A stretch of DNA of 64,000 bases from positions 36,324 through 100,323 of the forward strand of contig JBHLKM010000018.1 in NCBI GenBank assembly GCA_048886685.1, written 5' to 3'. Source of the stretch: Candidatus Hodarchaeota archaeon. GTDB lineage: Archaea; Asgardarchaeota; Lokiarchaeia; Sigyniarchaeales; SOKP01. Of this stretch, positions 32,026 to 36,383 are shown in pieces. Numbering within the stretch: position 1 is the stretch's first letter; each line of letters begins with the position of its first letter. Made by a program: the position numbers and the translations under genes. Below the pieces are notes generated by a model. That model saw only the letters and a program-made list of their open reading frames with translations. It ran no database searches and had not been told where the DNA came from.

Positions 32026-32280
32026 ATGACAGTTAGTCTCAAATATCATGAAATTTTGGAAGAAGATTTAGTGTTAGAATTAGAATGGTTAGAGGAAGAA
32101 TTCGAAATCTTATTTGATTCCAAAATTGAAGAACACACTGCGATGGACAAGAAATTTGCTAATGATATTTTAGATTATATACTCGAAAATACCGATGTAG
32201 ATGGTAATATTAGATTATTAGATCTGTTGAATGAGGTTTTAGAAAAAATTGAGAACAGATATTCTCCATTATTTAATTGA
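32026..32280 (+). CDS. small acidic hypothetical protein
   Basis: 84-aa ORF preceded by AAGGTG; helical and E/D/L-rich. Confidence 0.65.
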   Translation: MTVSLKYHEILEEDLVLELEWLEEEFEILFDSKIEEHTAMDKKFANDILDYILENTDVDGNIRLLDLLNEVLEKIENRYSPLFN

Positions 32281-33548: not shown

Positions 33549-36383
33549 TTGAAAATTATAATATTAAGCCATTTTAATCCAAGATTTGGCCCTAAAATCC
33601 TATTGAAAGCACCAGAATCATTAAAAGAAAATGATTTTGATTCTCTTCCTGCTTTAATGGACCTTTATAATGAGGGATTTTTCATTCACACTTTTGGAAA
33701 TTATAAGAGTGCTAATTATATTTTTAATATTTTTAGCAAAAAGGCAAGGGGCATGACAGAAATGCTACTTATTTCCATCGTATTCGACGTTAATAATAAT
33801 ATTAATTATAATTTATCAAAAGAACTGCTTGAAGGATTTGTAAGAGAGTTTGAAAATATTGAAGGTGTTTATAAAGCTTTTCATAGTAATCAATATGAAG
33901 ATGCTATGGAAAAATTAGATAAGGTCAAAGAATTATTTTTCACCTTCTATAATTCAATTCCCGAAGAAAGCATTATGTATAAACATAAAGATGCAAAAAT
34001 CCTCGTGTTTGGGCTTTCTTATGCTGGAAAGACGACCTTGATAAATTGTTTAAAAGAGGATATGAATAAAAAAACACTTCCGACTACATACATAGATGTT
34101 TCGAGGATTGTAATAAATAAAGTATCATTGTTTACTTATGATACACCTGGACAAATAAAATTTAGGAATTTATGGAAACCTTATTTAAAAAATCAAGATG
34201 GTTTAGTTTTCGTACTTGATATTGCAGACAAAGAACAATTTAGTGCTGCTCGAGAGATATTGCATAATGTTGTAGATTTACCAGATATGGAAGGCTTACC
34301 ATTACTTATTCTTTTTAATAAAATTGATTTAGAAGAGCCTAATATTGAAGCACTCAAGAAAGAGATGAAATTTGACAATTTTACTAATAGACCAATTCAG
34401 TGTTATTTAACCTGTGGCCTTACCGGTGAAAATATTAATAACGCCTTCCAATGGATTTCAGAAAAACTCTCAGAAAAAATTTCTCCTACTCCAAAAAGCG
34501 AATTGGGCCTACTTTTTTCAAAATGGAATGAAGATGAAGGTGTAAAAATAGTAGCAAATTATCCTGTTGATGCATTTGATGATCCTGAAGTCATTGCGAT
34601 CCGCTGCTTCTCGATTTCTCAATTTATCTTTGGAGGAGAGAATTTTAAAAGAACTTCTGTGATCTTACCCTTCACACATCTTAAACTAAAGGCAGCAATT
34701 TATTTTGATATTATTTCGGATGAATCAATAAGAGGTGGAGCACTACCTCTTTCACTAGTAATATTTTATGATGAGAATATTCCCAGAGCAATTATAGAAC
34801 GATTTAATAGTTTTATTTTTGACAAATTTACTCAAATTAAAGAATTATACACAGATAAATCTCAAGTTTTAATTGAACTCAGAAAAATATATGATACTAT
34901 TTTAAAAAAGTTAAGATCTGTCGAACCAACAATACAAGCATTAAGAATAGCAGAAATGCGTTATCAAGCATTATTCATGGCTGCTCGAGATGCAATTCTC
35001 ATTATTGATCGTAAGTCGGGAATAATTGTCGATGCAAATAAACAAGCAGAAGAAATACTTCAACGACCTTCAGAAATTCTTATTGGAATGCATTCTACTC
35101 AATTTAAATTGGAGGGAGAACAAACAGATTTCAAACAAATTATATTTAAACAGATTGAATTGGAGAACCCTCGATTAATTGAAATTCAAATTAAGAATCC
35201 AAACAATAGTAGTATACCCGTGGAAATAAATGCAAGCGAGATCCAAATGGGTGGTCAAAATTTAATTCAATGCATTCTACGTGATATTACTGAACGTAAA
35301 ATTGCAGAAAAGAGGTTAATTAATTCTGAAAATAAATATCGTCATCTATTCACAAATTCTCCTTTTTCTATAATATTAATTGATTCGAATGGAATTGTTG
35401 TAGATTGTAACCCTATGATAAAACAGTTGCTAGGATATAGTAACGAGGAATTGATTGGTAAAAGGTATGACAAACTTCCATTTATTCATCCAGAATATTT
35501 GAAGTCAATATTAGAGAGTTTAAAAAGGCTAATTAAAGGTGAACCAATAACTATTTTAGATGTTCAATTGAAGACAAAGGACGGAGGTTTAATATGGGTA
35601 AATATTCAAATATCTGTAGTTATAATTGATCAAGAAATTTATATTCAAATAATCGCCAACAACATTACTAACCAGAAAGAAGCCGAAGAAGCTTTACGAG
35701 AGAGTGAAACACAATTTCATAAAGCTTTAGATCGAGCCAATTTTTATAAAGAATTATTTGCTCACGACGTAGACAATATTTTTAAAAAAATACAAAACTC
35801 TATCACAAGTTACAAACTAACTCAAAAATCTACAAAAAAACCAATTGCATTGAATGGTATCTTAGAAGCTATTAAAGATCAAAGCCAAAGTGGGATAAAG
35901 TTAGTATCAAATATACGAAAATTATCCCAAATTGAAGATACGCCTCTGTCTTTAGTAAAGATTGAATTAAATTTGGTTTTACAGAAAGCCATAGAAAATA
36001 TATACGAAATTTTTCAAGACAAAAAAATTGATATTAAAGTATACCCTCCAAATAAAAAACATTATATTAACGCAAATGAGATTTTAGTAGATGTATTCGA
36101 AAATATTTTGATACATATTATTGAATATAACGAAAATACAAATGTAGATATTCAAATTCTGATATATCGCCAATTCAAAGAAGAAACTAATTATTTAAAA
36201 ATTGAATTTGTCGATAAGGCTGTTGGATCTTCATTGGGTAAAAATGAAAAGGAAAATAGCTACAAAGATTCCAGGAGCATGCTTTTAGGGCTATCTTTTG
36301 TTGATCAAATAATAAATAGTATAAATGGAGAAATGTGGGTTACAGGATCGAATTTCGTTATTATAATTCCAGAAATAATTTAA
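33549..36383 (+). CDS. multidomain signalling protein: longin/uDENN - Arf-like GTPase - longin - PAS - PAS - degenerate histidine kinase
   Basis: SHFNPRFGPKI; GLSYAGKTT/DTPGQ/NKID; WNEDEGVKIVANYP; two PAS-PAC (DAILIID..DAN...RDITERK; FSIILID..DCN...NITNQK); FAHDVDN and a degenerate HATPase. Confidence 0.85.
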   Translation: MKIIILSHFNPRFGPKILLKAPESLKENDFDSLPALMDLYNEGFFIHTFGNYKSANYIFNIFSKKARGMTEMLLISIVFDVNNNINYNLSKELLEGFVREFENIEGVYKAFHSNQYEDAMEKLDKVKELFFTFYNSIPEESIMYKHKDAKILVFGLSYAGKTTLINCLKEDMNKKTLPTTYIDVSRIVINKVSLFTYDTPGQIKFRNLWKPYLKNQDGLVFVLDIADKEQFSAAREILHNVVDLPDMEGLPLLILFNKIDLEEPNIEALKKEMKFDNFTNRPIQCYLTCGLTGENINNAFQWISEKLSEKISPTPKSELGLLFSKWNEDEGVKIVANYPVDAFDDPEVIAIRCFSISQFIFGGENFKRTSVILPFTHLKLKAAIYFDIISDESIRGGALPLSLVIFYDENIPRAIIERFNSFIFDKFTQIKELYTDKSQVLIELRKIYDTILKKLRSVEPTIQALRIAEMRYQALFMAARDAILIIDRKSGIIVDANKQAEEILQRPSEILIGMHSTQFKLEGEQTDFKQIIFKQIELENPRLIEIQIKNPNNSSIPVEINASEIQMGGQNLIQCILRDITERKIAEKRLINSENKYRHLFTNSPFSIILIDSNGIVVDCNPMIKQLLGYSNEELIGKRYDKLPFIHPEYLKSILESLKRLIKGEPITILDVQLKTKDGGLIWVNIQISVVIIDQEIYIQIIANNITNQKEAEEALRESETQFHKALDRANFYKELFAHDVDNIFKKIQNSITSYKLTQKSTKKPIALNGILEAIKDQSQSGIKLVSNIRKLSQIEDTPLSLVKIELNLVLQKAIENIYEIFQDKKIDIKVYPPNKKHYINANEILVDVFENILIHIIEYNENTNVDIQILIYRQFKEETNYLKIEFVDKAVGSSLGKNEKENSYKDSRSMLLGLSFVDQIINSINGEMWVTGSNFVIIIPEII

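Follow-up and report, generated by a model that had tools for sequence, protein, structure and literature searches.

A longin–GTPase–longin core fused to PAS domains and a degenerate histidine-kinase module in an Asgard archaeon

Introduction

Which part of a protein is in control when a eukaryote-type small GTPase and a prokaryotic sensor kinase are encoded as one polypeptide? This question is raised by a gene within a 64,000-nucleotide stretch of an Asgard archaeal genome (Candidatus Hodarchaeota archaeon, assembly GCA_048886685.1, contig JBHLKM010000018.1, positions 36,324 to 100,323), which is referred to here as the window. The gene encodes a protein of 944 amino acids (aa) in which a longin domain, an Arf-family G domain and a second longin are followed by two PAS domains and a histidine-kinase module with dimerisation/histidine-phosphotransfer (DHp) and catalytic/ATP-binding (CA) parts. 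An earlier note, made from the bare sequence, had read this protein as a former sensor kinase whose output was moved from phosphotransfer to control of the GTPase. Our analysis supports this idea as a fitting one, since the kinase residues decay repeatedly within the family, the longin–GTPase–longin (LGL) core is conserved, and the core also occurs without a kinase. We consider it plausible that the protein acts as a cytoplasmic signalling protein built on the LGL core.

Authenticity and domain organisation of the fusion

The open reading frame (ORF) starts with TTG, at a position where homologues carry Met, and lies in an AT-rich host genome of about 30% GC (Table 1). A Pfam/NCBIfam scan of the protein yielded Arf, two PAS domains and sub-threshold matches to HisKA and HATPase_c. 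The fusion described in the earlier note was confirmed together with all the motifs it quoted, namely F13-G14-P15, GLSYAGKT (155-162), DTPGQ (198-202), NKID (257-260) and W326..G331 in the core, and FAHDVDN (737-743), NILIHIIEY (852-860), DKAVG (889-893) and LLGLS (912-916) in the kinase part. About 120 proteins from independent assemblies (45-87% identity) share the same domain order. In addition, three more samples of the same study yielded contigs that tile the gene, domain junctions included, at 99-100% identity; these contigs are short unitigs, mostly from one study, and no RNA data set was listed among the sequencing runs containing the gene. A chimeric assembly was ruled out based on the architecture conserved family-wide, and the fusion is real.

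The GTPase, previously described as intact, is indeed a complete member of the Arf family (PF00025; 126.5 bits compared to a cut-off of 22.3). Its nearest solved relatives are Arl8A/B (E 1e-26), followed by Arf1 and Sar1 (down to 1e-22). It carries the P-loop, the switch-I residue T179, DTPGQ with the catalytic Gln, and NKID, with a Pro replacing the Arf Gly in the G3 motif. Across the family, no variation is seen at G1, the switch-I Thr, DxPG or NKxD. The domain is internal, with a 140-aa longin ahead of it, and has no Arf-type N-terminal amphipathic membrane helix, which in Arf proteins is usually myristoylated. Position 202 is Gln in the window protein and, across the family, Gln in 61, Lys in 49, His in four and Tyr in four sequences; Lys (DIPGK) occurs in one large subclade of a longer paralogue described below, and Tyr in a small one.

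Both flanking domains adopt a longin fold

In order to assign the two domains flanking the GTPase, each was modelled with AlphaFold2 (AF2) using family alignments. Both models show the topology ββ-α-βββ-α-α at high predicted local distance difference test (pLDDT) values (Table 1), and the C-terminal helices of the second longin extend to residue 464. Foldseek against the PDB placed NPRL2/Npr2 of GATOR1/SEAC on top for both domains (E 8e-7 for the first and 1.4e-5 for the second, probability 1.0), followed by FLCN/FNIP2, Lst4, NPRL3 and the longin of the Lokiarchaeota Roadblock-Longin protein 8yqg (E 3e-5 for the second longin). VIA-align served as a second look at the same Foldseek matches, each identified by the title of its entry and the residues covered. 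Z scores for the first longin were 13.3 (8yqg), 13.0 (GATOR1 chain 9o5a_H, residues 7-142), 12.5 (FLCN-FNIP2 chain, 6nzd) and 10.8 (C9orf72-SMCR8 entry 7o2w). The corresponding values for the second longin were 16.2 (8yqg), 11.7 (Lst4), 11.1-11.5 (FLCN-FNIP2 and GATOR1 entries) and 9.7-10.4 (C9orf72). SNARE, TRAPP and adaptor longins reached 8-10, and roadblock domains about 8.

A shape search of the ESM Atlas with the second longin recovered Asgard clusters, partly annotated as Folliculin or NPR2, as well as eukaryotic clusters with template-modelling (TM) scores of 0.78 for SMCR8-like proteins and 0.76 for the FLCN/SMCR8-type uDENN, and also Avl9 and NPRL2; the SMCR8, FLCN and NPRL2 clusters together ranged from 0.68 to 0.78. 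Neither model is of the roadblock/MglB type, as both begin with a β-hairpin instead of an N-terminal helix and finish in two helices. Per-domain AF2 models, Foldseek, VIA-align and the Atlas search thus bear out the proposal that the flanking domains are longin/uDENN folds; as modelled, both are of the same fold class as FLCN, NPRL2, SMCR8 and C9orf72. The second domain had also been called similar to the first, which holds for the fold, but sequence similarity between them is undetectable (hhalign E 0.06).

Motifs link the longins to GTPase-activating longin pairs

A GP motif just before strand 2 and an arginine finger mark the longins of GTPase-activating protein (GAP) type in FLCN, NPRL2, SMCR8 and C9orf72, the last of which additionally carries W33-D34; the same marks were found in a class of Asgard longins, for which the client was left open as either Arf-related or Rag GTPases (2025 survey, PMC12290439). 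In the first longin of the window protein, G14-P15 stands at the start of strand 2 and R67 lies in the loop between strands 4 and 5. Within the family, P15 is invariant, G14 is found in 36/93 sequences, and position 67 is Arg in 75, Lys in 23 and Asn in 11. In the second longin, W326, E328, G331 and G396 are kept in 117-118 and R395 in 116-118 of the 118 sequences, and position 327 is Asp in 115/118, the window protein having Asn. Its GP position reads G331-V332, with the Gly invariant and GP as the consensus of the wider family. The same-genome paralogues of the first longin carry SYF..GP and W-A-R-G.

An exhaustive profile search with the second longin returned 170 cluster representatives among 1.84 billion proteins, with the consensus WDExxGP...VRGG. 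When this widened profile was compared to the PDB, the best biological match was human C9orf72, at a marginal E of 0.03 and over the whole longin (26-164). The alignment sets WDExxGP on WDNILGP of C9orf72 and places the profile Arg opposite an Asn. The first-longin profile, widened with six paralogues, matched NPRL2 in the PDB at no better than E 0.8 over 26 residues, narrow family profiles found nothing there, and a word-index search for homologues of the first longin, based on its profile, brought up nothing but fragments of this family. In Pfam scans of the window longins and of 47 and 60 relatives, matches to longin, NPR2, Folliculin and DENN families did not rise above noise; NPR2 (PF06218) and Folliculin (PF11704) had no match at E<=1 in the window protein, and one of the 47 relatives matched Folliculin at E 0.14. 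The link to the eukaryotic GAP longins is therefore made through fold and motifs and not through significant sequence profiles.

Next, we compared the state of the two arginines with that of position 202 in the G domain. All 65 sequences that carry Gln or His there have R67, compared to 10/53 of those with Lys or Tyr, and its loss is confined to the subclades with Lys or Tyr, whereas R395 is kept regardless. Judging by this co-occurrence, R67 may act on the fused G domain.

The kinase module is degenerate at its ATP site

Both PAS domains expected from the earlier note were recovered; TIGR00229 matches the protein twice, the better match scoring 143 bits. The remaining C-terminal part falls below the Pfam cut-offs for HATPase_c (18.6 bits compared to 26.4) and HisKA (12.3 compared to 26.9). 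Built from the C-terminal 230 residues, a family profile matches the histidine kinase HK853 (3dge, 2c2a) with E 3e-15 along 200 residues, starting just after the H-box; a PDB search with the single kinase-region sequence gave no match, and HK853 was reached only with the family profile.

The predicted H-box is present with the acceptor His739 inside the motif, in a register offset by about one helical turn from H260 of HK853. In the ATP-binding domain, the alignment to HK853 revealed changes in the N, G1, F and G2 boxes (Table 1). The description of the module as an eroded pseudo-kinase consequently stands for the ATP site, which is degenerate at His856, G1 and G2, but is unproven for the module as a whole, in which His739 is retained. 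Based on these motifs, the label "pseudo-kinase" fits the ATP-binding domain. Across the family, the acceptor position is His in 28, Asn in 68 and Gln in 13 sequences, the N-box Asn position is Ser in 73, Asn in 27 and His in four, and DxGxG is kept in only about 20 members.

The core is conserved and the kinase is lost repeatedly

A maximum-likelihood tree of the core, midpoint-rooted without an outgroup, falls into two clades. The clade of the window protein includes members whose kinase motifs are fully canonical, and several separate losses. The other clade comprises a paralogue of 1100-1126 aa with an extra GAF/PAS, in which the N-box Asn and G1 are lost throughout; the window protein represents the shorter paralogue that retains the acceptor His. 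Parsimony requires at least 10 changes at the position of His739 and at least five at the N-box Asn. In the deep-branching relatives P0018, P0019 and P0109-P0114, the H, N and G1 boxes are canonical, which makes these proteins probably real kinases.

The core was also detected in a variety of other contexts. It occurs alone (473-483 aa), with a tail of no assigned family (630-635 aa), joined to a single PAS domain and a canonical kinase (about 830 aa), and within giant many-PAS/GAF proteins of 1772 and 2317 aa; an apparent core-PAS-PAS form without kinase (701-721 aa) holds if the records are complete. As far as sequences can tell, the conserved unit is the LGL core, with the sensor and kinase parts as accessories and the kinase chemistry dispensable in most lineages. 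Relatives with receiver domains include a receiver-Arf-longin form of 567 aa and receiver-longin proteins of about 300 aa. A receiver joined to a second-type longin is also seen in P0184, P0210 and, together with an Arf-like domain, P0193.

A survey of the architecture across Asgard genomes, as the earlier note had called for, covered a phylum sample of 300 genomes. The core was found in 28/67 genomes of the window's own GTDB family and in 0/233 genomes of 29 other families, a count limited by the first-look filter of the survey. Given this restriction to one family, the names Thor-, Heimdall-, Odin-, Hod- and Hermodarchaeota on a few relatives are probably loose submitter labels. Two core matches were present in 6/29 positive genomes, the window's own (G000) included.

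This genome (4.4 Mb, 47 contigs) encodes both full paralogues. The second belongs to the long class (G000:C9:823-2226; L009, L017; open frame of 1153 aa), so that the two classes coexist as paralogues. Longins of the second type are fused here to receiver domains, a Ras-like GTPase and a Rag-like GTPase, and those of the first type to PAS-GAF-PAS or an Arf-like domain. The receiver fusions with a second-type (WDExxGP/RGG) longin are L011:949-1935:+ on contig C13 and L013:736-1929:+ on contig C4; such receiver-longin proteins resemble two-component outputs whose target is a small GTPase and not DNA. On contig C6, the 555-aa product of L019:262-1926:- has neither GTPase nor kinase; its first-type longin, which matches the family profile at E 1e-41, precedes PAS-GAF-PAS. 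On contig C4, between 134 and 165 kb (L012, L013, L014), longin-Ras-like, receiver-longin and longin-Rag-like genes, all with second-type longins, lie within 30 kb and may be a local grouping of GTPase regulators. The strand-1/GP region of the second longin also gave weak matches (E 7e-5 to 7e-3) at G000:C20:63822-63923, C20:55684-55797 and C16:78191-78298, within open frames of 2318-2680 aa.

Genomic neighbourhood

The gene directly upstream encodes a Rag-like GTPase with the G3 motif DLGGH, the G4 motif HKND and a C-terminal roadblock region. Its best PDB matches are LokiRagO (8yl2, homotetrameric; 1e-61), LokiRagM (1e-26) and RagC/RagA (1e-11). An orthologue adjoins the fusion gene at two of five other orthologous loci, those of P0005, which is 74% identical and has the orthologue on the same strand, and P0022 (53%, in divergent orientation), and is absent beside P0017, P0024, P0035 and the long paralogue. 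Upstream genes of 300-313 aa at two orthologous loci (L006, L007) were considered as candidates and rejected as not Rag-like. The Rag-like neighbour is a possible trans partner of the fusion protein. No receiver gene was found within the neighbourhood examined. An ORF of 84 aa further upstream, at 32026-32280 (+), matches no family; a related contig has two equally long ORFs in the corresponding region (L001:2463-2717 and L001:3545-3799).

Table 1. Features of the fusion gene and its upstream neighbour, in window coordinates (aa, residues of the 944-aa protein).
Feature	Position	Strand	Basis or state
Rag/Gtr-like GTPase gene, 314 aa	32493..33437	+	Pfam Gtr1_RagA E 7e-29; 111 nt upstream of fusion gene
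Fusion gene, 944-aa ORF	33549-36383	+	uninterrupted 944 codons
N-terminal longin, NPRL2/FLCN type	33549..33968 (aa 1-140)	+	AF2 pLDDT 92, Foldseek, VIA-align
GP motif G14-P15 of first longin	33588-33593	+	motif
Arg67 of first longin, β4-β5 loop	33747-33749	+	model secondary structure
Arf-family G domain	33969..34478 (aa 141-310)	+	Pfam Arf 142-306, E 1e-36
Gln202 of DTPGQ	34152-34154	+	motif
Second longin	34479..34943 (aa 311-465)	+	AF2 pLDDT 88, same longin topology
W326-N-E-D-E-G331 of second longin	34524-34541	+	motif
Arg395-Gly-Gly of second longin	34731-34739	+	motif
PAS domain 1 incl. helical linker from second longin	34944..35318 (aa 466-590)	+	Pfam PAS_9 481-582, 90.8 bits
PAS domain 2	35319..35693 (aa 591-715)	+	Pfam PAS 596-692; TIGR00229 593-716, E 5e-42
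DHp-like helices with H-box FAHDVDN	35694..35948 (aa 716-800)	+	family profile vs HK853
His739	35763-35765	+	H-box FAHDVDN
Acceptor His			His739, retained
Degenerate CA (HATPase_c-like) domain and stop codon	35949..36383 (aa 801-944)	+	HATPase_c sub-threshold
N-box NILIH856 (His856)	36114-36116	+	opposite HK853 N380
Mg-ATP Asn, opposite HK853 N380			His856 in window protein; HK853 alignment
G1 box, opposite HK853 DNGIG	aa 889-893		DKAVG; HK853 alignment
F box			absent in window protein; HK853 alignment
G2 box			SMLLGLS; two of three glycines lost

Comparison with known systems

In eukaryotes, longin pairs act as GAPs at the lysosome, where Arf is the client of C9orf72-SMCR8, RagA that of NPRL2-NPRL3 and RagC that of FLCN-FNIP. 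By analogy, the closest mechanistic model for the window protein would be C9orf72-SMCR8 on ARF1. The C9orf72-SMCR8(-WDR41) complex (7mge, 6lt0, 7o2w) likewise brings together two different longins and an Arf-family GTPase; W33-D34...G38-P39 of C9orf72 resembles the W..G motif of the second longin, an Arg lies in the loop before β5, and both structural searches support the likeness (VIA-align Z 9.7-10.8; Atlas TM 0.78 to SMCR8-like clusters). In the complex of C9orf72-SMCR8-WDR41 (CSW) with ARF1, the two longins cup ARF1 and Arg147 of SMCR8 points into the active site, 7mge having been solved with ARF1 fused to SMCR8 (PMC8213707). In contrast, the window protein is a single polypeptide without DENN parts and WDR41, both of its longins have an Arg, PAS domains and a kinase are attached, and its GAP activity is only predicted.

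GATOR1 (NPRL2-NPRL3, Arg78) and FLCN-FNIP2/Lst7-Lst4 (Arg164) provide the best Foldseek and VIA-align matches to both longins (E to 8e-7, Z 11-13). The strand-1/GP-motif start of NPRL2 is resembled by the window longin and, as for GATOR1, a Rag-like GTPase is at hand, encoded next to the fusion gene. However, the fused client is Arf-like and not Rag-like, DEPDC5 and DENN parts are missing, there is no Pfam match to NPR2 or Folliculin, and the NPRL2 profile match stays at E 0.8.

Among prokaryotic systems, MglA-MglB of Myxococcus similarly sets two platform domains of the roadblock/longin superfold on one small GTPase, but the platform there is a homodimer of the roadblock protein MglB, which begins with a helix, no fusion is involved, and roadblock domains reach only Z ~8 here. 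The PAS-PAS-DHp-CA layout is that of PAS sensor histidine kinases of the HK853 type (match at 3e-15), from which the window protein differs by its altered ATP-site motifs and the attached eukaryote-type GTPase module. The pseudo-kinases DivL and RetS, which lost catalytic residues and kept the fold when they were repurposed, are a parallel to its kinase module. Roco proteins and LRRK2 also combine a small G domain and a kinase-like module in one dimeric polypeptide, where intramolecular regulation is expected; these are unrelated in sequence, with a Ser/Thr kinase and a COR dimeriser in place of a histidine kinase and longins.

Also close in kind are the GP-motif longins of Asgard archaea, the Loki Roadblock-Longin protein 8yqg (Z 16.2 and 13.3) and Asgard Arf-related GTPases with extra domains; the window protein shares their phylum and this class of longin. 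Published outlines for Asgard archaea already mention longin-GTPase fusions and Arf-like proteins that begin with a longin (PMC10933270, PMC11914678). Compared to these studies and to the work on GP-motif longins (PMC12290439), the window adds a longin-Arf-longin arrangement joined to PAS domains and a (pseudo)histidine kinase. The Asgard literature searched contained no description of a GTPase-histidine-kinase fusion, and the literature searched gave no account of a double-longin Arf core with PAS domains and a (pseudo)histidine kinase, of family-wide kinase decay, or of receiver-fused relatives.

Proposed mechanism and alternative explanations

With moderate confidence, we propose that the window protein is a PAS-gated, single-chain longin-pair/GTPase switch, in which the decayed kinase serves as a scaffold-like dimeric part. 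The docking of the G domain, the GAP chemistry and the direction of the signal from PAS to core are steps that we infer. The two longins would pair and cradle the fused G domain, and an Arg of the β4-β5 loop (R395 and/or R67) would complement Gln202 in GTP hydrolysis. The PAS pair, which is joined to the second longin via a helical linker, may alter the geometry of longins and G domain in response to some cytoplasmic ligand or redox cue, so that the regulated output would be the nucleotide state of the G domain. The C-terminal DHp/CA part would mainly dimerise the protein; its ATP site is decayed, and His739 could still join in phosphotransfer.

Several points weigh against this proposal. Docking of the G domain on the longins is a prediction; modelling of a complex with the two longins and the GTP-bound G domain as separate chains reached ipSAE values of 0.23 and 0.08, both under the mark of 0.32, and was counted neither for nor against docking. 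The coupling between R67 and Gln202 amounts to only five phylogenetically independent contrasts, which is underpowered and not significant. Homology to the eukaryotic GAP longins at the level of profiles is marginal (C9orf72) or absent (NPRL2). The equivalence of R67 and R395 to the eukaryotic Arg fingers, which are R78 in NPRL2, R164 in FLCN and R147 in SMCR8, is proposed from their position in the modelled secondary structure. Moreover, in eukaryotes most longin pairs serve as exchange factors or platforms and not as GAPs.

Two further points against the PAS-gated switch favour a reversed flow of information, namely the retention of His739, inside an H-box-like motif, in the window protein and its closest relatives, and the N-terminal place of the core, which is the usual place of sensor domains in the ordinary kinase order from input (N) to output (C). 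In such a scheme, the nucleotide state of the G domain would serve as input together with the PAS domains, and the DHp part as output, in the form of a weak or atypical kinase, a phosphatase or a His-phosphotransfer partner for orphan receivers, for example the receiver-longin proteins L011 and L013 encoded in the same genome. The canonical boxes of the deep-branching relatives point the same way. However, the Mg-ATP Asn is replaced by His, G1 reads DKAVG, two of three G2 glycines and the F box are gone, HATPase_c and HisKA stay under their cut-offs, and no receiver gene lies nearby. Most family members have even lost the acceptor His, with the whole protein kept. We hold a reversed direction to be unlikely.

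It is also conceivable, though quite unlikely, that the longin pair works in trans, as a GAP of the GATOR1 or folliculin kind, towards the upstream Rag-like GTPase or another free GTPase, leaving the fused Arf-like domain as a regulatory element or pseudo-substrate. By its HKxD motif and its roadblock tail, the upstream neighbour is a true Rag-like GTPase, its adjacency is kept at orthologues of 74% and 53% identity, subunits of Rag GAPs are the closest folds to both longins, and R395 remains nearly invariant also in proteins whose fused G domain no longer has Gln202. On the other hand, three other orthologous loci and the long paralogue lack this neighbour, the conserved feature is the G domain fused between the longins, and trans binding is predicted at most. 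Finally, we regard as very unlikely that the longins are non-catalytic, serving as an exchange or docking platform (of the Mon1-Ccz1, TRAPP, DENN or MglB-like kind) or as dimerisation modules, as exchange factors or scaffolds make up most of the known longin and roadblock pairs (PMC3747258; PMC10933270) and tri-longin exchange factors and SNARE longins lie only 1-3 Z units under the GAP longins, but the GP motif and Arg loop are specific to GAP-type longins (PMC12290439) and the Arg of the second longin is nearly invariant.

Implications for Asgard signalling

With two longins of this kind fused to an Arf-family G domain and a Rag-like gene adjoining, the window protein names a candidate client for the GP-motif longins of Asgard archaea. 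It also has prokaryotic sensor parts, namely PAS domains and a histidine kinase, to which relatives add receivers, wired to eukaryote-type GTPase regulators, and the repeated kinase decay provides a natural case of rerouted signalling output. A soluble construct of about 465 residues lets the Arg-finger mechanism be tested without reconstitution of a complex, thereby offering a one-protein route to asking if the eukaryotic longin switch machinery predates eukaryotes.

Tentatively, the eukaryotic longin-pair GAPs may have a prokaryotic counterpart, in one chain, in the LGL core, with an Arf/Arl8-like client under PAS and two-component control; the NPRL2/SMCR8-type longins and the C9orf72-type "WD" longins would then have split before eukaryogenesis. 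If this were true, the nutrient signalling of CSW, GATOR1 and folliculin would descend from an archaeal sensor-coupled GTPase switch.

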